A DNA stretch of 58,929 bases from Eubacteriales bacterium (lineage in GTDB: Bacteria > Bacillota > Clostridia > Oscillospirales > CAG-272), in the NCBI GenBank assembly GCA_045655565.1, contig JAZOPN010000056.1:1-58929 (forward strand), in the 5' to 3' direction. Made by a program: the position numbers and the translations under genes. This document shows positions 3,827 through 14,343 of the stretch, piece by piece; position 1 is the stretch's first letter, and each line of letters opens with the position of its first letter. The notes beneath the pieces are model-generated. The model saw only the letters and a list, made by a program, of their open reading frames with translations. It ran no database searches and had not been told where the DNA came from.

Positions 3827-5086
3827 TTATCTTGTCTGACCTGTACCCTCTATAACATACTTATAGGTGGTAAGCTCACGAATTCCCATAGGCCCTCTTG
3901 CGTGCATCTTCTGGGTAGAAATACCCATCTCGCATCCAAGTCCGAACTCACCTCCGTCGGTAAATCTCGTTGACGCATTCACATACACTGCCGCCGAGTC
4001 CACCGAGTTAACGAAGGCTGTCGCTGCCTCATCACACCTGGTTATAATGCAATCGCTATGGTGCGTAGAATGCTCACCAATATGCGTAATAGCCTCATCT
4101 ACCGAGTCAACGATGCCTACCGCCAGCTTGTAGTCGAGGAACTCTGTGTCGAAGTCCTCGTCTGTCATAGCCACGCCATCAATTATTCTTAAAGCGCGCT
4201 CATCCAGCCTTAATTCGACAGGCACCTGAGCGGCCTTTTGTCTTGCGACAACTAGCCTCTCGTATAGCATCGGTAGAAAAATATCTGCAATAGCACTGTT
4301 TACTAGGCACACCTCTGCCGCGTTACATACCGAGGGGCGCTGTGTCTTTGCGTTTTCAATGATGTCGAGTGCCATATCAATATCAGCACTTTCATCTACA
4401 TATATGTGGCATATACCCGTGCCGGTTTCGATTACAGGCACGATAGCATTCTCAACACAGGCAGAAATCAAGCCCTTGCCGCCTCGTGGTATCAAGAGGT
4501 CGACATAGCCCCTCGCGCGCATAAGTTCGGTAGCACTCGCGCGTGTTGTATCGTCAACCAGCTGCACAGCACATTCGGGTAGCCCTGCACGCTTGGTTCC
4601 GCGCACCAGCGCATCCACGATGGCACGCGCAGAACGATACGCTTCCTTGCCTCCGCGCAGTATGCATACATTTCCACTCTTAAGAGCAAGTGCTGCCGCG
4701 TCGGATGTAACATTCGGTCTGCTCTCATATATGATTGCTACGACACCCATAGGCACAACCGTCTTCTTAATTACAAGACCATTAGGCCGTACCACCGTGT
4801 CTATCACATCACCAAGAGGCGAGGGAAGTGCCATAGCATCGGTAATACCGCGCGCCATCCCAAGAATTCTATCCTCACTTAGGCGTAGACGGTCTATCAT
4901 AACATCGCTGATTTTACCGCGTGCCGCCTCGCAGTCGAGCGCATTTGCCTCTAGTATCTCTGCGCTTGCCGAAACCAGCTCCTCTGCCATATAGGCGAGG
5001 GCTGTGTTTATTTCTTCCTTTGTTACTCCGTTCATCTTAGCCTTAGCGGCTCTTGCATCGCGGAGTATATCCCTAGTTAATTTCAT
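3827..5086 (-). CDS. proA: Gamma-glutamyl phosphate reductase
   Basis: IYESRPNVT, catalytic SVCNA, NASTRFTDGGEFGLG, HARGPMG; start moved to ATG 5086 (MKLTRD). Confidence 0.96.
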   Translation of the reverse strand: MKLTRDILRDARAAKAKMNGVTKEEINTALAYMAEELVSASAEILEANALDCEAARGKISDVMIDRLRLSEDRILGMARGITDAMALPSPLGDVIDTVVRPNGLVIKKTVVPMGVVAIIYESRPNVTSDAAALALKSGNVCILRGGKEAYRSARAIVDALVRGTKRAGLPECAVQLVDDTTRASATELMRARGYVDLLIPRGGKGLISACVENAIVPVIETGTGICHIYVDESADIDMALDIIENAKTQRPSVCNAAEVCLVNSAIADIFLPMLYERLVVARQKAAQVPVELRLDERALRIIDGVAMTDEDFDTEFLDYKLAVGIVDSVDEAITHIGEHSTHHSDCIITRCDEAATAFVNSVDSAAVYVNASTRFTDGGEFGLGCEMGISTQKMHARGPMGIRELTTYKYVIEGTGQTR

Positions 5087-5108
5087 TTTTATCCCCCGTG
5101 GGTTATGA

Positions 5109-5873
5109 CTATTTCGAGTAGAACCTTGTTCCAACCGCCTCACCATCAAGTATCTGATAAAGTCTGTCGGGGTATGCACCGTTTGTAATAATCATATCAC
5201 AACCGCCCTCGTTTGCAATTTTGGCGGCGCGTAGCTTCGTCTGCATACCGCCTGTGCCGAGCATAGAACCTGCCCCCTCACCGAGCGTCATTATCTCGTC
5301 GGTAATCTCTCTTACCTCGGGGATAAGCACAGCATTTGGATTTTTCCTCGGGTCGGCGGTGTATAGCCCCTCGATGTCGGAGAGGAGTACCAACAGGTCT
5401 GCTCCGATACTAGCCGCAATACGCGCGGAGAGCGTGTCGTTGTCACCAAACTCAATCTCCTCGGTTGCCACGGTGTCATTCTCGTTGATAATCGGAATTA
5501 CAGAGAGCTCGAGTAGTTTTTCTATTGTCGCATTGAACTTCGCGTGCCTATCCTCGCATTCAAGGTCAGGTGCTGTCAGGAGTATCTGCGCCACCGTGTG
5601 GTTATGTAGCGCGAATTCCTTGTCATAGATATACATCAGCTCGCACTGACCTACGGCTGCCGCTGCCTGCTTCGCCGCTATCTCGGTGGGCTTCTTCGCC
5701 ATATGCAGCTTTCCGACACCCATACCCACAGCACCTGAGGATACTATAACCACCTCGTTGCCTGCATTCTTCATATCGCTAAGCGCGCGACAGAGCATCT
5801 CAATTCTACGGATGTTTACCGCGCCGTTAGCATATGTAAGAGTAGATGTGCCTATCTTGACAACTATTCTCAT
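5109..5873 (-). CDS. proB: Glutamate 5-kinase (no PUA domain)
   Basis: VVKIGTS, SSGAV, INENDTV, FGDNDTLSA, GTGGMQTK. Confidence 0.96.
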   Translation of the reverse strand: MRIVVKIGTSTLTYANGAVNIRRIEMLCRALSDMKNAGNEVVIVSSGAVGMGVGKLHMAKKPTEIAAKQAAAAVGQCELMYIYDKEFALHNHTVAQILLTAPDLECEDRHAKFNATIEKLLELSVIPIINENDTVATEEIEFGDNDTLSARIAASIGADLLVLLSDIEGLYTADPRKNPNAVLIPEVREITDEIMTLGEGAGSMLGTGGMQTKLRAAKIANEGGCDMIITNGAYPDRLYQILDGEAVGTRFYSK

Positions 5874-6078
5874 AATTAACTCCATTCCGCCGCACAGCGA
5901 CTATCTTAATTTCGTCAGCACTAAAGACGCCTGACGAAAAAACTTTCCACTATAAACCATATTTTAGCATATCAAAAGGCATAATGCAAGAAAAAATATA
6001 TAAAATAATACCTAAAAAAAGATATTTTATGAGAAAAAAGTGAGGAAGCAGAAAAACTTCCCCACAAAATGATACGCA

Positions 6079-7152
6079 TTAAAAAACTTCACCGGCAATA
6101 TTGGTGGTTGCAAACCTTGTGAGTGCAACGCCTGAAAGTCCGAGCGACACACCAACCATAAGCTTGGCATACGCCATCTCGACATTCATATTCAGATATG
6201 TCGGCTTCGCGTGACTATGCAGATCATACATAGTTGAATACTGGTCTTGGTCTAGCCTCGTTGGTGCGACAAACAGCGGAATATCGCATTTCAGACACTT
6301 GTCGGCAAGATAAAGAATTGATAGGGTGGAGTAGTCCTCGTCATCCTCACACCTCTCGGTACATACCGTCCCCGAGTGATAGGTTGTGTGCAGTACCGCC
6401 TTTACACCATCGAGGGATATTCTCGAGTAATCAAGCCCTGTGTACGGATGTATCAGAAGAACATCCGATGACAACCCGGAAATCTTTTCTATATCCACCC
6501 CCGTGTCGAGTTTTCTCTGCTTGCTAGCCTCGCGTGCCCAAGCTTTTGCATCACTATTATCGCCATCGAATGTGACAATAGGCGCACGCTCCGTCACTGC
6601 GCTATGGAAGTCCTCGGAAAATACAGGACACTGCATAATAGACGAGCCGAGGTGCAGATAAATATTGCCATCGCTATTCCTATATGGCACATATACCGCC
6701 GGGCTTATGCCGTCGAGTATAAGCTCTATTGCCATACGGAAGTTGTCGTGAGCATTCGTTAGTGGGTCGCTTGGTGGGCGATTGCCCGATACCAGCATTA
6801 TCGGCACACCCGTGTTATGAAATACGACTGAAAATATCGCCGCAGAAAAGGCGAGCGTGTCGGTGCCGTGCATTACCACAACACCGAGATAGTCCTCTAG
6901 CCTATATGACCTTATATGCTCGATAATTCTCCACAGCTTTTTTGGTGTCATACTCTCGCTTAGCGTTTGATATTCCGGGGGAAATGTCGATATCTCGAGC
7001 ACTTCGTCCGCAAGCGGTGCATAGCACGACGCCCCACCCCTGAAGTTCTCGGCTAAGGAAGAGCGCGAGGCAGCAGAGTTAAGTTCTCTCTTTCCGCCCT
7101 CAGCGCTAGTGCCTATTGTGCCACCGGTATATACCGTTAGAATTTTTTTCAT
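6079..7152 (-). CDS. Asparaginase/glutaminase (AnsA/GatD-like) family protein
   Basis: TGGTIG and HGTDT catalytic-Thr motifs, LSESMTP; lies 18 bp downstream of gatB on the same strand. Confidence 0.85.
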   Translation of the reverse strand: MKKILTVYTGGTIGTSAEGGKRELNSAASRSSLAENFRGGASCYAPLADEVLEISTFPPEYQTLSESMTPKKLWRIIEHIRSYRLEDYLGVVVMHGTDTLAFSAAIFSVVFHNTGVPIMLVSGNRPPSDPLTNAHDNFRMAIELILDGISPAVYVPYRNSDGNIYLHLGSSIMQCPVFSEDFHSAVTERAPIVTFDGDNSDAKAWAREASKQRKLDTGVDIEKISGLSSDVLLIHPYTGLDYSRISLDGVKAVLHTTYHSGTVCTERCEDDEDYSTLSILYLADKCLKCDIPLFVAPTRLDQDQYSTMYDLHSHAKPTYLNMNVEMAYAKLMVGVSLGLSGVALTRFATTNIAGEVF

Positions 7153-7170
7153 AATGACTTGATGACCGGA

Positions 7171-8610
7171 TTATGCTTTGTTGACTTCCTCGATGAGGAT
7201 AGCCCTAAGCGTCTGTGGGTCGCAGTTGCCACGCAGTTCCTTCATACATCTGCCGAAGAGCGACATCAGTGCCTTTTCCTTACCGCCCTTGTAGTCACTG
7301 ACAGCCTTAGGGTCGGAAGCAACAACGGTCTTAACAACCTGCTCTATAAGACCTGTGTCGTTAGATACAACAAATCCGTTTGCCTCGGCATATGCCTTCG
7401 GGTCGATTGTCTTATCGTCAAACATAGCAGAGAGTATCTTCTTGCCGTTAGCACGACCGACAGTACCCTCCAGCACAAGGTTAATAAGCGTACCAAGTGC
7501 CGTACCGTCTATGTCGAGCATATCGGTAGTCATCTGCCTTGAATTCAGCTCCTTCATAACCTCGGAGAGCATCCAGTTAGCAGCATCCTTAGCCTTGCCA
7601 CATACCTTGTATGCATCCTCAAATGTGTCCGAGAGCGCACGGCTCTCGGTTATAAGACCTGCATCATACTCGCTAAGACCAAGCTCGTTGATATATCTTG
7701 CACGCTTAACCTCGGGGAACTCGGGTAAAGACTCGCGAATAGTACCATACCACTCGTCATCAATGACAATAGGCATAATGTTAGGGTCGGGGAAGTAACG
7801 GTAGTCACCGGCAGTTTCCTTGGTTCTCATAGAATAGCTCTTCCCGCGAATATCATCCCAGCGGCGTGTCTCCTGGACGAGCACCTCGCCACTACCCTCA
7901 AGCGCGTCTATATGCCTTGCGGTTTCGTATTCGATAGCGCGAGCAATAGCGGTGAGAGAGTTCATATTTTTCATCTCTGTACGCACACCAAGAGTTTTTG
8001 AGCCTTCGGGACGAACAGAAAGGTTTACATCACAGCGCATCGAGCCCTGCTCCCAACGGCAGTCCGAAACCTTTGCGAAGCGAAGAAGCGAGTGAAGTCT
8101 CTCAAGATATGCGATAACCTCCTCCGCGCTCGATAGGTCGGGCTGGCTAACAATCTCGATGAGGGGAACGCTCGTACGGTTGAAGTCTACGTGTGTTGTA
8201 TCGGGGAGAATATCGTGCACAAGCTTGCCCGCATCCTCCTCCATGTGTATCTGCTTAATTCTAATACTCTTCTTGCCGCTCGATGTCTCAATCTCCACAG
8301 TGCCATTCACCGCAATGGGCGCAAACCACTGTGTTGTCTGATACGCCGAGGGAAGATCGGGATAGTAGTAGCTCTTCTTGTCGAATGTGGTTGTGCGGTT
8401 GATGTGACAATTTAACATCATACCTGCGGTCATACCGAGGTCGACAACCCTCTTGTTGACAATTGGGAGCATACCCGGCATACCACAGCAGGCGGGGCAT
8501 ACGTGCTCGTTGGGGCCACCACCGAACTTAGCCGAGCAGGAGCAGAAAATCTTGGAGTTCGTAGCAAGCTCTACGTGTACCTCAAGACCAATGACGGTTT
8601 CGTATTTCAT
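7171..8610 (-). CDS. gatB: Asp-tRNA(Asn)/Glu-tRNA(Gln) amidotransferase subunit B
   Basis: IGLEVHVEL, KIFC, CPAC, HMEEDAGK, PLIEIVS, RCDVNLS, QETRRWD, DYRYFP. Confidence 0.97.
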   Translation of the reverse strand: MKYETVIGLEVHVELATNSKIFCSCSAKFGGGPNEHVCPACCGMPGMLPIVNKRVVDLGMTAGMMLNCHINRTTTFDKKSYYYPDLPSAYQTTQWFAPIAVNGTVEIETSSGKKSIRIKQIHMEEDAGKLVHDILPDTTHVDFNRTSVPLIEIVSQPDLSSAEEVIAYLERLHSLLRFAKVSDCRWEQGSMRCDVNLSVRPEGSKTLGVRTEMKNMNSLTAIARAIEYETARHIDALEGSGEVLVQETRRWDDIRGKSYSMRTKETAGDYRYFPDPNIMPIVIDDEWYGTIRESLPEFPEVKRARYINELGLSEYDAGLITESRALSDTFEDAYKVCGKAKDAANWMLSEVMKELNSRQMTTDMLDIDGTALGTLINLVLEGTVGRANGKKILSAMFDDKTIDPKAYAEANGFVVSNDTGLIEQVVKTVVASDPKAVSDYKGGKEKALMSLFGRCMKELRGNCDPQTLRAILIEEVNKA

Positions 8611-9803
8611 TATCTCTCTCCCTCCCCGATAATCTTAGCGCACTCAAGCAGTGCCGCATCCGAGAATAGAGGGCCAACCAGAGCAACACCGCCTGCTACC
8701 GCATAGGGCAGACCGCTTATCATCATAGGCGCGACAAACCTATTCTCCTTGTAGGAAATAGCCTCGTCAGCCTTTATGTCATCCTCAGTGTACAAGGTCT
8801 TAGAGCATACGGGAGTAAGAACTGCGTCAAACTCACCGAACACCCCGGCAAATGCCTCTGACACAACGCGCCTTACGCGAAGTGCCTTGTCATAAATAGC
8901 CATATAATTCTCGGTAGACAGCGTGTCAGAGCCGAAGAGAATAGCACACTTTAATAGCTTGCCAAACGCCTCTGTACGGCTACCGGTATATAGCTCGTCG
9001 ATATTGGTGAAGTTGTCGGTGCGATAACCGTACTTCACGCCATCATACTTAGATACATTGTTGCATAGCTCAGCACTCATAAGGATATTCCACGCGCCGT
9101 GCGCTGCCGCGAGTACATCGCAGTCTATCTCGGTGACCTCGACACCACTTGCTATAAGTGCCGCCTTTGCCGCCTCCAGCCTTGCCATAGTATCAGCATC
9201 TGCACCCTCGGTCATAGACTTAATTATAGCCACCTTGCCAACAGGCTTTCTTACCACAGTAGCCGACACACAGGTGTTCTCGTCGTGGCTAGTGCCATCC
9301 TTGCTGTCGTGATGCGCGAGAGTACCAAAGAGGTCAAGACAGGTCTTAGCATCCCTCGCCATAACACCAACGCACTCGCCGGAGCATACAACAGGAACAA
9401 TACCAAATCTCGATACCACGCCATAGGTAGGCTTAAGCGCTACGATACCGGCAAGAGCCGCCGAGCGTGCCATAGCACCGTTGACCTCAACAGCCACAGC
9501 GCCCATAGCCTCGCCACTCGCTACAATCTCTGCCGCAGAGCCTACGAGCACACCATCCTTAATTGCCACACCGTTATACGCGGTCTCACCGACAAGGTCG
9601 ATACCGAACTCGCCGACAGACGACTTGCCACAAATCTTGTAGCCGGCATCGCCAAGCCTTGTTACCACCTCGGCATCAAATAGGCTCATATAGCCATCGA
9701 GCATCCTAGAGCCTGCCGTGGTTGGCATATCCTTAGTAAGGATCATATCATCTAGGACGATGCCATCCTTGACACCGTCGCACTTTACATTATACAGTTT
9801 CAT
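8610..9803 (-). CDS. gatA: GatA homologue, shortened (397 aa) and apparently catalytically inactive
   Basis: Sits between gatC and gatB; keeps KPTYGVVSRFG, YDGVKYGYR, RTEAFG, KALRVRR; amidase triad motifs are degenerate. Confidence 0.85.
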   Translation of the reverse strand: MKLYNVKCDGVKDGIVLDDMILTKDMPTTAGSRMLDGYMSLFDAEVVTRLGDAGYKICGKSSVGEFGIDLVGETAYNGVAIKDGVLVGSAAEIVASGEAMGAVAVEVNGAMARSAALAGIVALKPTYGVVSRFGIVPVVCSGECVGVMARDAKTCLDLFGTLAHHDSKDGTSHDENTCVSATVVRKPVGKVAIIKSMTEGADADTMARLEAAKAALIASGVEVTEIDCDVLAAAHGAWNILMSAELCNNVSKYDGVKYGYRTDNFTNIDELYTGSRTEAFGKLLKCAILFGSDTLSTENYMAIYDKALRVRRVVSEAFAGVFGEFDAVLTPVCSKTLYTEDDIKADEAISYKENRFVAPMMISGLPYAVAGGVALVGPLFSDAALLECAKIIGEGER

Positions 9804-9814
9804 AATACCTCCCA

Positions 9815-10096
9815 TCACTCCACGACACGAGGAACACGCCAATAGCCCTCGTCAGCATCGGGAGCGCCCTTTTGGAGCTCTTCCCTGGTATAGGGCTGTG
9901 ACGCTACATCCTCACGCACGACCGTGAGTATCGGCATAACGTGTACCATCCTCTCTGTGGAGGTGGTGTCTATTTTCTCGAGCCTTGTAAACTCCTTCGC
10001 CCTCTCGCCGAAGAACGCGATAACATCATCCGCCTCGGCATCTGTGAGAGCGAGCTGGTTTAGCGACTCGAGTCTAGCTAAAGCTTCTCTTTCCAT
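9815..10096 (-). CDS. gatC: Amidotransferase subunit C
   Basis: 93 aa, VVREDV and APDADEGYWRVPRVVE C-terminus; operon position. Confidence 0.92.
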   Translation of the reverse strand: MEREALARLESLNQLALTDAEADDVIAFFGERAKEFTRLEKIDTTSTERMVHVMPILTVVREDVASQPYTREELQKGAPDADEGYWRVPRVVE

Positions 10097-10110
10097 AAAA
10101 TTAGCCTTTC

Positions 10111-11886
10111 TTAATCTCTAACCTTTATGTGAACCTCACGAAGCTGCTGCTCGGTAACCTCGCCGGGCGCACCCATCATAAGGTCCTGCGCATTTCCGTT
10201 AAGCGGGAATGCGATAACATCGCGGATGGTCTCCTCCTCTGCGATGAGCATGATCATTCTGTCAACGCCGGGAGCCATACCTGCGTGGGGAGGCGCACCA
10301 TAGGAGAACGCGGTGTAGAGCGCACCGAACTTCGCCTTAACATCCTCCTCGCCATATCCCGCGATCTCGAATGCCTTCTTCATGATCTCGGGGTTGTGGT
10401 TACGAACAGCACCGGAGGAAAGCTCAACACCATTACATACGATGTCATACTGATATGCGAAAATCTCAAGAGGATCCTTGTTAAGAAGCGCATCGAGACC
10501 ACCCTGGGGCATGGAGAATGGATTGTGTGTGAAGTCAATCTTGTTTGTATCGGGGTTAAGCTCATACATCGGGAAGTCGACGATGAAGCAGAACTCGAAG
10601 GAGTCGTTCTTGATGAGGTTAAGCTCATTGCCGAGCCAGGTTCTAATCTGACCTGCGAGCTGGTTTATAACCTTGGGAGTATCGCAGATAAAGAAGAGGG
10701 TTTCGCCATCCTTAATGCCGACAAGCTCGGTTAGCTCTGCCTGCTGCTCGGGGGTGAGGAACTTCGCAATCGGGCCCTTGTACTCGCCACCCTCAAGGGT
10801 GATGTAGCCGATACCGTACGCCATACCGATGCTTCTTGCATATACATCAATAGCCTTCTCGAATGCCTTCTTGCCGTCACCGTCACCATCTCTCTTAACA
10901 AGGTAGTTAGCAACAATACCGCGAACAAGCTTATTCTTGAAGGGGATAGTTCTGCCGTTTATGGTGAGGAAATCACCCTTAGCGAAGAAGTTTGTAAGAT
11001 CCTGGATAAGGAGTGGGTTTCTAAGGTCGGGCTTATCCGAGCCATACTTCAGCATAGCCTCAGCGAAGGAGATGCGTCGGAAAGGAGGCTTAGATACGGT
11101 CTTATTTGAAAACTCGCTGAATGTGTTATAAACCACAGTTTCCGCGACCTCGAATACATCCTCCTGTGTTGCAAACGCCATCTCGAAGTCGAGCTGGTAG
11201 AACTCTCCGGGAGAGCGATCCTGACGCGCATCCTCGTCACGGAAGCAGGGTGCGATCTGGAAATAACGGTCAAAGCCCGAAGCCATCAGAAGCTGCTTAA
11301 ACTGCTGGGGAGCTTGGGGAAGTGCATAGAACTTGCCCTTGTGCTTACGGCTGGGTACAAGATAATCACGCGCACCCTCGGGTGAGGACGCGGTGAGTAT
11401 GGGTGTCTGTATTTCGAGGAAGCCTAGCTCCTCCATCTGACGGCGAAGATAACTGAGTATCTTAGAGCGAAGAACAATATTGTCGTGTATTTTGCGGTTT
11501 CTAAGATCGAGATAACGGTACTTAAGTCTTATCTCCTCGCGAGTGAGGGTAGAAGCATCAATCTCAAAAGGAAGACCGAGCTTACAGGGACCAAGCACCT
11601 CAATCTTATTTGCACGCACCTCGACAAGGCCTGTGTCAAGCTTGGGGTTTACGGTTTCCTCATCTCTCTTGGTTACGACACCCTCGACGAGAACTACGGT
11701 CTCCTTAGCAAGACCTCTTAGCATACTGTCATCCGAGAAAACTATCTGCGTTACGCCATAGTGGTCGCGCAGGTCAACGAAAAGCACGCCTCCGTGGTCG
11801 CGTACAGTCTCCATCCAACCTGTTAGCGTTACGGTCATACCGATATGCTCGAATCTGAGTTCATTACAGTTGTGTGTTCTTAGCAT
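10111..11886 (-). CDS. aspS: Aspartate-tRNA ligase, probably non-discriminating
   Basis: RTHNC, RDHGG, PEGARDY, ALPQAPQQFKQLLM, CFRDED, PPHAGMAPGVDR; linked to gatCAB and an Asn T-box. Confidence 0.95.
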   Translation of the reverse strand: MLRTHNCNELRFEHIGMTVTLTGWMETVRDHGGVLFVDLRDHYGVTQIVFSDDSMLRGLAKETVVLVEGVVTKRDEETVNPKLDTGLVEVRANKIEVLGPCKLGLPFEIDASTLTREEIRLKYRYLDLRNRKIHDNIVLRSKILSYLRRQMEELGFLEIQTPILTASSPEGARDYLVPSRKHKGKFYALPQAPQQFKQLLMASGFDRYFQIAPCFRDEDARQDRSPGEFYQLDFEMAFATQEDVFEVAETVVYNTFSEFSNKTVSKPPFRRISFAEAMLKYGSDKPDLRNPLLIQDLTNFFAKGDFLTINGRTIPFKNKLVRGIVANYLVKRDGDGDGKKAFEKAIDVYARSIGMAYGIGYITLEGGEYKGPIAKFLTPEQQAELTELVGIKDGETLFFICDTPKVINQLAGQIRTWLGNELNLIKNDSFEFCFIVDFPMYELNPDTNKIDFTHNPFSMPQGGLDALLNKDPLEIFAYQYDIVCNGVELSSGAVRNHNPEIMKKAFEIAGYGEEDVKAKFGALYTAFSYGAPPHAGMAPGVDRMIMLIAEEETIRDVIAFPLNGNAQDLMMGAPGEVTEQQLREVHIKVRD

Positions 11887-11989
11887 TGTAAAATACCTCC
11901 GAATTTATCATCAAATTTTATTAACCAAAGTAATTTCCCACAAGCCGACTGACAAGTATATTATGCTCATAGGGTAGAGTAAATAACGG

Positions 11990-12240
11990 ATGAAAAAACA
12001 AAAAGCCCATCATCCCATATATTATGGGACGAAAGGCAAACTTCCGCGATACCACCCAAATTGACCATAAATGGTCCACCTCAATTATGCCGTTACGCGA
12101 CAAGCGTGCGGGTCTAATAACCAAATGGCTTTCTTCCGCAGACTCCGAAGTGTTTTTCTCCAAAGGTACGCTGCTGTCTTACACCAACCGACAGCTCTCT
12201 GCAAGCGGTTTTCCTCGGATACTCGCTTCATCAACGCCAA
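11990..12240 (-). promoter_or_regulatory. T-box riboswitch, Asn (AAC) specifier
   Basis: Minus strand: GAGTA S-turn, AGAGAG and GGTGTAA motifs, specifier AAC (12152-12154), T-box AATTTGGGTGGTATCGCGG (12044-12062), terminator hairpin plus U tract (11992-12037). Confidence 0.92.
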
Positions 12241-12462
12241 TTCACGCATTTATTTTATCACACATTGTAATGGTTGTCAAGATAATTTGAAAATATTTTA
12301 TACTGTATTACTTATATAGCCCGAAAATATTAGGTTATAAAAATAATCACCTTAGTGTATTGTCTAAACTTTGTGTTTTTCGGGTGTCTGCCCTAATTTT
12401 CTTTTTATTATCGTTGCTAATAGTTTTCCTCGCCAAATTCTGGAATTTCGGTGGGTTTATTA

Positions 12463-12614: not shown

Positions 12615-12657
12615 AACAAAAAGAGAACTTTTGGTAGACAAAAGTTCTCTTTTTGTT
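12615..12657 (-). terminator. Terminator of tRNA-Gln
   Basis: aacaaaaagagaacttttg/caaaagttctctttttgtt perfect inverted repeat abutting the tRNA CCA end. Confidence 0.75.
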
Positions 12658-12731
12658 GGCAGGGGTAGCTGGATTTGAACCAGCGGATAGAGGAGTCAAA
12701 GTCCTGTGCCTTACCGCTTGGCGATACCCCT
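12657..12731 (-). tRNA. tRNA-Gln(UUG)
   Basis: AGGGGTA..TACCCCT-G-CCA acceptor stem, anticodon loop CTTTGAC, T arm GCTGG-TTCAAAT-CCAGC. Confidence 0.95.
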
Positions 12732-14176: not shown

Positions 14177-14261
14177 TGGTGGGGGAAGCTGGATTCGGAC
14201 CAGCGAAGTCGATGACAACAGATTTACAGTCTGCCCCCTTTGGCCGCTCGGGAATTCCCCC
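14177..14261 (-). tRNA. tRNA-Tyr(GUA)
   Basis: GGGGGAA..TTCCCCC-A-CCA, anticodon loop CTGTAAA, long variable arm. Confidence 0.95.
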
Positions 14262-14268
14262 ATATTAC

Positions 14269-14343
14269 TGGAGCTGGTGAACGGAGTCGAACCATCAACC
14301 TGCTGATTACAAATCAGCTGCTCTGCCATTGAGCCACACCAGC
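14269..14343 (-). tRNA. tRNA-Thr(UGU)
   Basis: GCTGGTG..CACCAGC-T-CCA, anticodon loop TTTGTAA, GGTTCGACTCC. Confidence 0.95.

Follow-up and report, generated by a model that had tools for sequence, protein, structure and literature searches.

An Asn T-box operon with a catalytically dead GatA homologue and an asparaginase-fold protein as candidate ammonia source for tRNA-dependent asparagine formation

The indirect route to Asn-tRNA(Asn), for which exactly two enzyme architectures are known (GatCAB and GatDE), is textbook knowledge, and GatB is known to need ammonia at its kinase site. In Clostridium acetobutylicum the genes of this route reportedly form an aspS-gatCAB operon controlled by an Asn T-box, said to have been described by Saad et al. 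in 2012, in which GatA is catalytically normal and which has no asparaginase-fold gene. According to PMC2330236, ammonia reaches the kinase site through a tunnel from a hydrolase subunit, for which GatCAB has an amidase and GatDE a homologue of asparaginases. The operon described here lies on contig JAZOPN010000056.1 of an Eubacteriales bacterium (assembly GCA_045655565.1), a stretch of 58,929 nucleotides that was analysed as a whole and is called the window below. Its GatA homologue has lost the catalytic triad, and its last gene encodes an asparaginase-fold protein, here named AsnL (gene asnL), which is the best candidate for the missing ammonia source. The dead-GatA amidotransferase operon with AsnL is what is new here, the Asn T-box before aspS-gatCAB having reportedly been described before.

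As in the operon reported for C. acetobutylicum, an Asn T-box precedes aspS-gatC-gatA-gatB in a Clostridia genome with a second aspartyl-tRNA synthetase (AspRS) gene elsewhere, whereas the dead GatA and the AsnL gene set the operon of the window apart. All features of the operon are on the minus strand of the contig, in the order promoter-like site, T-box with AAC specifier, aspS, gatC, the gene of the GatA homologue, gatB, asnL and terminator, and all five open reading frames (ORFs) are intact. The gaps between the five genes, read from the sequence, are 14, 11, -1 and 18 nt, the start of gatB overlapping the stop of the preceding gene by 1 nt; this order and spacing had been given correctly in the original prediction, which was made from the letters of the window. 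The T-box leader, including its terminator hairpin, occupies 12010..12243, and its match to the Rfam family RF00230 at 12243..12022 covers the full length of the model (1-219) with 124.6 bits against a gathering threshold of 93 (E 3e-27). In the alignment to the T-box model, the specifier-loop segment reads GAA-A-AAC-A, in which AAC codes for Asn and the usual purine comes next, the terminator hairpin with its T-run is found at 12032..12010, and the string GAA[A/G]AACAC is invariant in all six aligned leaders, those of the window operon and of five related operons. Judged by its score, specifier codon and terminator, the leader is a predicted T-box of the Asn class. A promoter-like site (12252..12280; TTGACA-17 nt-TAAAAT with a TG extension) is found 9 nt 5' of the T-box and is the best of the region at 11 of 12 consensus positions, the assignment being a consensus match only. 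A hairpin resembling an intrinsic terminator, with a 10-bp stem and a T-run (6040..6065), follows 14 nt past the AsnL stop, and no terminator-like site is present within the 18-nt gap between gatB and asnL. No Shine-Dalgarno sequence was seen 5' of asnL, as the original prediction had also remarked. The best explanation of this layout would be a single operon for tRNA-dependent asparagine formation under the control of an Asn T-box.

Compared with bacterial GatCAB, the locus is alike in having GatC and GatB proteins that exceed their NCBIfam cut-offs, a GatA-fold subunit encoded in the order gatC-gatA-gatB beside aspS, and relatives whose tRNA(Asn) has the U1-A72 pair. The aspS gene (10111..11886) encodes a bacterial-type AspRS of 591 aa (PF00152, PF01336, GAD; NF001750 758 bits vs 443), presumed to be a non-discriminating copy that charges tRNA(Asn), and gatC (9815..10096; 93 aa) matches PF02686 and, with 61.1 bits vs 47.1, TIGR00135. 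The gatB gene (7171..8610; 479 aa) encodes a kinase/transamidase subunit that is intact, as had been predicted, with 378 bits for PF02934 (GatB_N), 116 for PF02637 (GatB_Yqey) and 588 vs 338 for NF004012.

The difference from GatCAB resides in the GatA homologue, referred to as pseudo-GatA (8610..9803; 397 aa, from an ATG behind GGGAGG, the longest ORF starting with TTG at 9842), and in the apparent use of the complex for Asn only. Its score against TIGR00132 is 229 bits, far from the cut-off of 481, and residue mapping on the solved GatAs 2df4 and 4wj3 places D18, L86 and A110 where the S. aureus enzyme (2df4) has K79, S154 and S178, so that three of three residues of the Ser-cisSer-Lys triad are replaced and the loss of catalytic motifs claimed in the original prediction is confirmed at the level of single residues. 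The Lys of an LTKD motif was considered as a retained catalytic Lys and rejected, as K79 aligns with D18 and the LTKD Lys is six positions downstream of K79. At Y309, R358 and D425, the residues that bind Gln in the S. aureus enzyme, the homologue has W, A and N, respectively. Relative to the solved GatAs, the protein begins at about residue 63-78, and about 60 N-terminal residues of canonical GatA are lacking; its AlphaFold2 (AF2) model is a confident amidase fold with a predicted local distance difference test score (pLDDT) of 90.0. With the triad gone, the system is not GatCAB in the strict sense, and it is not GatDE either.

These losses are shared across a clade. The motifs GGSSGG and GGSIR are absent in 43 of the 44 GatA homologues of at least 300 aa encoded in the 80 AsnL loci that were collected, the 44th being a second, canonical copy (locus L074), and the 43 have dead motifs in common: GGSSGG is replaced by LxxA.., and SDTGGSIRQPA by D[VL]NGx[PV]RRAA. 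An alignment of 21 pseudo-GatA sequences has 52 invariant columns and a mean column identity of 62%. In a quick maximum-likelihood tree (IQ-TREE), 46 dead GatAs form one clade apart from 10 live ones, with a Shimodaira-Hasegawa-like approximate likelihood ratio test (SH-aLRT) value of 99, and the dead/live label requires one change. By these alignments, pseudo-GatA is a conserved pseudo-enzyme clade under purifying conservation and not a decaying gene; as it is predicted to be unable to hydrolyse Gln, the amide nitrogen must have another source. The GatA homologue of one further genome (G245), with the half-degraded motifs ISGGAAAAV and DSDGSSRR, sits on a long branch between the dead and live groups; its gene (L102, G245:C3, about 5334-6404) is inside an aspS-gatC-gatA-gatB cluster and keeps a Ser at the nucleophile position, and the same genome has a canonical GatA and glutaminyl-tRNA synthetase (GlnRS) and no AsnL match. 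It may represent a transitional state.

That the complex is still needed is suggested by a survey of 401 genomes of the same GTDB order, namely the window's own (72.7% complete) and 400 sampled at a completeness of at least 90%, all of them metagenome-assembled genomes (MAGs). Scores against a dead-GatA profile are bimodal in this sample, with 22 genomes (the window's included) at 472-629 bits, G245 at 384 and canonical GatAs at no more than 314, and the dead-GatA clade accounts for about 5% of the sample and extends over at least seven GTDB families. Asparaginyl-tRNA synthetase (AsnRS) was found at E<=1e-40 in none of the 21 dead-GatA genomes other than the window's (90-98% complete), by a search whose control passed the cut-off in six known genomes, and no GatA over the TIGR00132 cut-off was found in any of the 21. 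A second, canonical GatA, split across two contig ends, is present in G002 only, the other 20 having no second GatA. GlnRS exceeds its cut-off in 19 of the 21; in G283 it is a fragment at a contig end, and it was not found in G002, which is thus a dead-GatA genome with neither an AsnL match nor GlnRS and the sole holder of a second canonical GatA. In 23 genomes searched for AsnB, G245 and the window's genome among them, the cut-off was passed in 12. Since no AsnRS was found in these near-complete relatives and a canonical GatA in G002 alone, AspRS with GatC/pseudo-GatA/GatB is the only route to Asn-tRNA(Asn) found in them, and since the carriers of dead GatA have GlnRS, Gln-tRNA would be made directly and the complex would be needed only for Asn. 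The claim of the original prediction that a dead GatA is conserved in an operon that must still work is borne out by these counts.

The tRNA substrate fits this picture. The U1-A72 pair of tRNA(Asn) is an element recognised by GatCAB. Genes for tRNA(Asn)-GUU adjoin the AsnL/gat cluster in three relatives (L038 6857-6932, L039 778-853, L047 7714-7789), and the two that were read, those of L038 and L047, have U1-A72, G73 and an encoded CCA. Among the GatCAB-encoding genomes listed in PMC4206432, all 15 have U1-A72 in tRNA(Asn). The searches of the window's own genome gave a single GatA-like gene, a single GatB and, on a different contig, an archaeal-type AspRS. Neither GlnRS nor AsnRS reached the cut-offs in this genome, and no tRNA-Asn or tRNA-Asp is among the 26 tRNAs that aragorn found in its 71 contigs. 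The look for asnS, glnS and a second gatA that had been proposed in the original prediction thus gave no match over the cut-offs in the 72.7% of the genome at hand, and the answer from relatives is the one given above. The archaeal-type AspRS (428 aa; G000 contig C42 6154-7386, i.e. L002 1489-2775, minus) scores 425 bits vs 353 for NF003483, 'aspartate--tRNA(Asn) ligase', and similar AspRS ORFs of 432-441 aa occur in three of four congeners that have AsnRS and no GatB.

The second unusual component, AsnL (6079..7152; 357 aa), has an atypical type-I-asparaginase fold, PF00710 being matched in the N-terminal domain only. Its AF2 model (pLDDT 95.4) has the predicted two-domain asparaginase fold, and in Foldseek searches the top structures are type-I asparaginases (4r8k, 4q0m, 1wls, 2p2d) at a template modelling (TM) score of about 0.70 (range 0.66-0.72), with GatD at ranks 38-40. 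AsnL resembles type-I L-asparaginases such as E. coli AnsA and the Pyrococcus and guinea-pig enzymes in this fold, in the motif TGGTI with the nucleophile T12, in HGTDT (T97, D98) and in the substrate Ser S65; it differs from them in a Lys to Gln change, in an invariant YHSGT that replaces the usual Y-G-x-G-G segment of the C-domain throughout the AsnL family, and in a TIGR00519 score of 79.8 bits where the cut-off is 260.5. T12, T97 (at least 90%) and D98 are invariant or nearly so in the 92 sequences of the family, two N-terminally truncated calls excepted. The family forms a group of its own, with 823 cluster representatives at E<=1e-30, whose members are called 'asparaginase' or 'hypothetical protein' where their source names them at all.

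With archaeal GatDE the locus shares the pairing of an asparaginase-fold protein with a tRNA-dependent kinase of the GatB/GatE type (PMC2330236). Unlike GatDE, which acts on Glu-tRNA(Gln), it would act on Asp-tRNA(Asn), and it has a retained GatA-fold subunit and an ordinary GatB in place of GatE: the operon's GatB scores 158 and 116 bits against GatE cut-offs of 456 and 320 and is classed as GatB. The best match of AsnL among PDB sequences is GatD (1zq1; E 7e-12 with the single sequence, 1e-26 with the profile). However, AsnL was rejected as a GatD orthologue, because its scores are far below the GatD cut-offs (NF003217 72.8 bits vs 310, TIGR02153 71.3 vs 324), it has Gln for the catalytic Lys, its fold is nearer to type-I asparaginases, and its alignment begins at GatD residue 95, so that the N-terminal domain of GatD is absent. 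The term 'GatD-like' of the original prediction was therefore too strong.

Some members of the AsnL family were found as putative fusions. In P0121 (707 aa) and P0122 (684 aa), an AsnL-type domain with the Q-C and YHSGT motifs appears to be joined to a PfkB-family kinase, and in P0224 (813 aa) to an AlaX-like aminoacyl-tRNA editing domain (the end of tRNA-synt_2c plus tRNA_SAD, with HxxxH and CxxxH). As leads only, these would fit a module that works with kinases or with aminoacyl-tRNA. A further protein, P0123 (781 aa), combines GatB_N (partial, 93 bits), GatB_Yqey (110) and a full asparaginase domain (89) in one chain; its motifs look degenerate, with QGGAMCG where TGGTIG is expected and the His of the GatB motif 'LEVHVEL' lost. 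It may be a fossil, or a variant, of a partnership between GatB and an asparaginase. A complex prediction for the pair of pseudo-GatA and AsnL scored 0.00 against a mark of 0.32, from which nothing is drawn.

The link between AsnL and the operon was followed in 80 loci fetched with an AsnL profile, of which 12 were set aside (below 32.5% identity or below 300 aa), leaving 68 loci of the narrow clade. In 54 of them the fetched flanks contain aspS or gat genes, and six arrangements occur: AsnL 5' of aspS in the same orientation (18), gatB then AsnL (15), AsnL divergent from aspS (12), convergent with gatB (6), AsnL then gatC (2) and aspS then AsnL (1, L012, which has no gatCAB). The gene is beside aspS in 31 of the 68 loci and beside gatB in 21, and in the 15 loci with the order gatB then AsnL the two genes are 2-73 nt apart (in four loci 2 nt), except for one locus with 3048 nt. 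As for the remaining loci, nine have flanks too short to judge, and five are without a gat gene, with flanks of 5 kb or more on either side. An adjacency that survives rearrangement in this way is strong evidence of shared function, for which co-transcription is not required. At the level of genomes, AsnL matches of more than 300 bits are confined to dead-GatA genomes (12 of 22, against 0 of the 379 others); 11 of these 12 have AsnL on the contig of the operon, and G293 adds a split, linked copy. Any AsnL match at E<=1e-25 is found in 20 of 22 and 11 of 379, respectively. These figures uphold the co-occurrence and synteny of triad-less GatA with the asparaginase family, for which the original prediction had suggested a check. 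Where no GatA is encoded in the fetched AsnL locus (32 genomes), the dead type is found elsewhere in the genome in 14, canonical GatA only in 13 (seven of which carry a narrow-clade AsnL) and none in five.

In the model that we propose, AspRS would load Asp onto tRNA(Asn), and GatB would phosphorylate and then amidate it, with GatC and the catalytically dead GatA retained as structural partners of GatB. AsnL would be the likeliest replacement source of nitrogen, releasing ammonia from Asn or Gln by means of its retained Thr nucleophile and handing it to GatB, possibly via the remnant pocket and tunnel of GatA, which in effect would combine, in a bacterium, the architecture of GatCAB with the logic of GatDE. 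AsnL is favoured because of its synteny and co-occurrence with the operon, its retained nucleophile and substrate residues, and the precedent of GatDE; from these we infer its activity, its supply of ammonia, its contact with the complex and its choice of amide donor. As a whole, the reading of a T-box operon with a dead-GatA scaffold and AsnL as the ammonia source for GatB is given a chance that falls just short of even. A broader proposal, which we would sooner doubt than accept, is that of a third tRNA-dependent amidotransferase architecture, in which a bacterial GatC/pseudo-GatA/GatB core, once Gln had passed to GlnRS, became specialised for Asn-tRNA(Asn), an atypical AsnL with a Thr-Asp-Gln site and the new YHSGT motif replaces the amidase as ammonia donor, and the dead GatA serves as a scaffold and/or a tunnel. 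As AsnL is not a GatD orthologue by sequence, its recruitment would be a convergence on GatDE logic.

With regard to the amide donor, Asn is as plausible as Gln. It had been argued in the original prediction that an Asn-destroying enzyme would be counter-productive under Asn starvation, which is a weak argument, as the T-box senses the charging of tRNA(Asn) and not free Asn. What the leader reports is uncharged tRNA(Asn), and free Asn cannot be loaded in a cell that lacks AsnRS, so conversion of Asn to Asp and ammonia would feed both AspRS and GatB.

Several observations speak against AsnL as the ammonia source, the main objection being the change of the catalytic Lys. In AsnL the Lys of the Thr-Asp-Lys triad is replaced by Q174. 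This residue is conserved to at least 90% in the family and stands in the alignment where GatD (VRK) and the T. sibiricus asparaginase (TSK) have their Lys; the Lys is restored in none of the 92 family sequences, the gat-linked clade having Q at this position and a more distant clade (25-32% identity) varying. The original prediction was right about the retention of TGGTI and HGTDT but missed this replacement, and with Lys changed to Gln family-wide, classical hydrolase activity cannot be assumed. The flexible loop of asparaginases contains a Tyr that has a role in these enzymes, and no Tyr is conserved in the stretch after TGGTI in AsnL. AsnL is also the fastest-evolving protein of the operon, with a median identity to the window of 37% in 38 five-gene loci, compared with 72 for AspS, 65 for GatB, 50 for pseudo-GatA and 48 for GatC. 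Seven narrow-clade AsnL genes (L012, L015, L016, L020, L056, L063, L071) are in genomes of unknown completeness where canonical GatA alone was found, two dead-GatA genomes, G002 and G263 (93% complete), have no AsnL match, and in seven others only the distant AsnL class was matched (119-187 bits), whose genes are not linked to gat genes and share no coherent neighbourhood.

The arrangement of the loci likewise tells against AsnL as a regular member of the transcription unit, as 36 of the 68 (18 upstream, 12 divergent, 6 convergent) place AsnL outside that of the T-box. In the nine relatives that were scanned, a T-box is present upstream of aspS in five and none was found upstream of a separately placed AsnL; in L028, L036 and L038, where AsnL is upstream of aspS, the T-box lies between the two. 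The shared T-box control assumed in the original prediction therefore fits the gene order of the window but is not general. Lastly, the four congeners of the window's organism (98-99% complete) have AsnRS and no GatB, which makes the operon patchy within the genus, and with these congeners and an own genome of 72.7% completeness, absence of AsnRS is not claimed for the window's organism. The flanking genes are 66-72% identical to those of the congeners, and the operon is 71-74% identical to that of G370, which bears on a recent horizontal arrival into the genus without being decisive.

With respect to Q174, the change might slow deacylation and in this way couple the turnover of an acyl-enzyme to transamidation. 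A Thr-89-Val mutant of the E. coli asparaginase is reported to hold a covalently bound intermediate. By analogy, ammonia may be released by acylation without the second triad, with slow deacylation as the coupling device.

The choice that the original prediction had framed, between the asparaginase-fold enzyme and free ammonia as the nitrogen source, is still the right one, with AsnL now seen to be tightly linked to the operon across many genomes. In the main rival, an ammonia-only model that we consider unlikely though worth serious attention, GatC/pseudo-GatA/GatB would take up free ammonia of the ammonia-rich gut or rumen via the emptied GatA pocket or at GatB itself, and AsnL would be no subunit but a metabolic accessory, e.g. 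one that salvages exogenous Asn to Asp (for AspRS) and ammonia where direct loading of Asn is not possible. When ammonium is added in vitro, amidotransferases are able to use it. Gut or rumen MAGs are named in every source record, two pseudo-GatA genomes (G263 and G002) have no AsnL match, and the distant, unlinked homologues are the only ones in seven dead-GatA genomes. Separate transcription of AsnL is, judged from arrangement, frequent, and narrow-clade AsnL also occurs alongside canonical GatA only, as in L012 with its aspS then AsnL. On the other hand, the adjacency of AsnL is very strong and resistant to rearrangement, the 54 linked loci covering six orders, the strong matches are confined to dead-GatA genomes, and a simple catabolic asparaginase would be expected to retain the catalytic Lys.

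Another proposal, to which we give a small probability, puts AsnL on the aminoacyl-tRNA side in a non-hydrolytic or differently catalytic role, perhaps binding or proofreading Asp- or Asn-tRNA(Asn), or stabilising a transamidosome together with AspRS. The family-wide replacement of Lys by Gln together with the new invariant YHSGT would suit such a role, and so would the frequent position of AsnL beside aspS, no rarer than that beside gatB, the L012 locus in which aspS is followed by AsnL and gatCAB is absent, and the putative AlaX-like fusion of P0224. This fusion is, however, one cluster representative and a putative gene call, and the invariant nucleophile Thr, HGTDT and the substrate-binding Ser point to small-molecule Asn/Gln chemistry; to our knowledge, no asparaginase-fold protein acts on tRNA. 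Finally, a degenerating relic, with Asn-tRNA(Asn) made otherwise by an undetected AsnRS or by a GatA missed in incomplete MAGs, is highly improbable: the incompleteness of the window's genome, the AsnRS of its four congeners and the origin of all data from MAGs would allow for it, but AsnRS was found in none of the 21 near-complete dead-GatA genomes by a search with positive controls, five of five ORFs are intact, pseudo-GatA is strongly conserved as one old clade across several families, and the T-box is intact and accompanied by a promoter-like site and a terminator.

On the reading with AsnL as the ammonia source, the operon would show how an ammonia-tunnelling complex can exchange its source of ammonia, and a first function would be assigned to the large unannotated asparaginase-like family of 823 representatives. 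Irrespective of the source, a clade of Clostridia from gut and rumen seems to operate the route to Asn-tRNA(Asn) with a GatA that is unable to hydrolyse glutamine, which would be a natural example of a pseudo-enzyme kept in an essential translation complex and raises the testable question of the origin of the amide nitrogen. In the open-access and bioRxiv full texts that were searched, no description of a triad-less GatA or of an asparaginase-fold gene in a bacterial gatCAB operon was found. Annotation pipelines would label these genes 'gatA' and 'asparaginase', and metabolic models that use those names would be wrong.

As for the distant AsnL-like class, an informative neighbourhood was looked for and rejected, the ten neighbours being MatE, DAPDH, AraC, TIR, Toprim, a TPP enzyme and unknowns. 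TIR-domain proteins (ThsB_TIR / TIR_2) adjoin distant AsnL-like genes in L106 (5330-8275) and L108 (4719-5729) and are probably unrelated defence genes.

Around the operon in the window, a tRNA-Gln(TTG) gene (12657-12731, minus strand) is located about 380 nt upstream of the promoter-like site, with genes for tRNA-Tyr(GTA) and tRNA-Thr(TGT) farther upstream (14177-14261 and 14269-14343, minus strand). Directly 3' of the operon terminator, at 3827-5885 on the minus strand, are two mutually overlapping ORFs that by eye are proB-like (258 aa) and proA-like (450 aa, GTG start). At 174-251, also on the minus strand, is an Rfam match to the Gut-1 RNA (RF01706) with 52 bits against a gathering threshold of 50, and pieces of this stretch recur at several contig ends of the congener G219.

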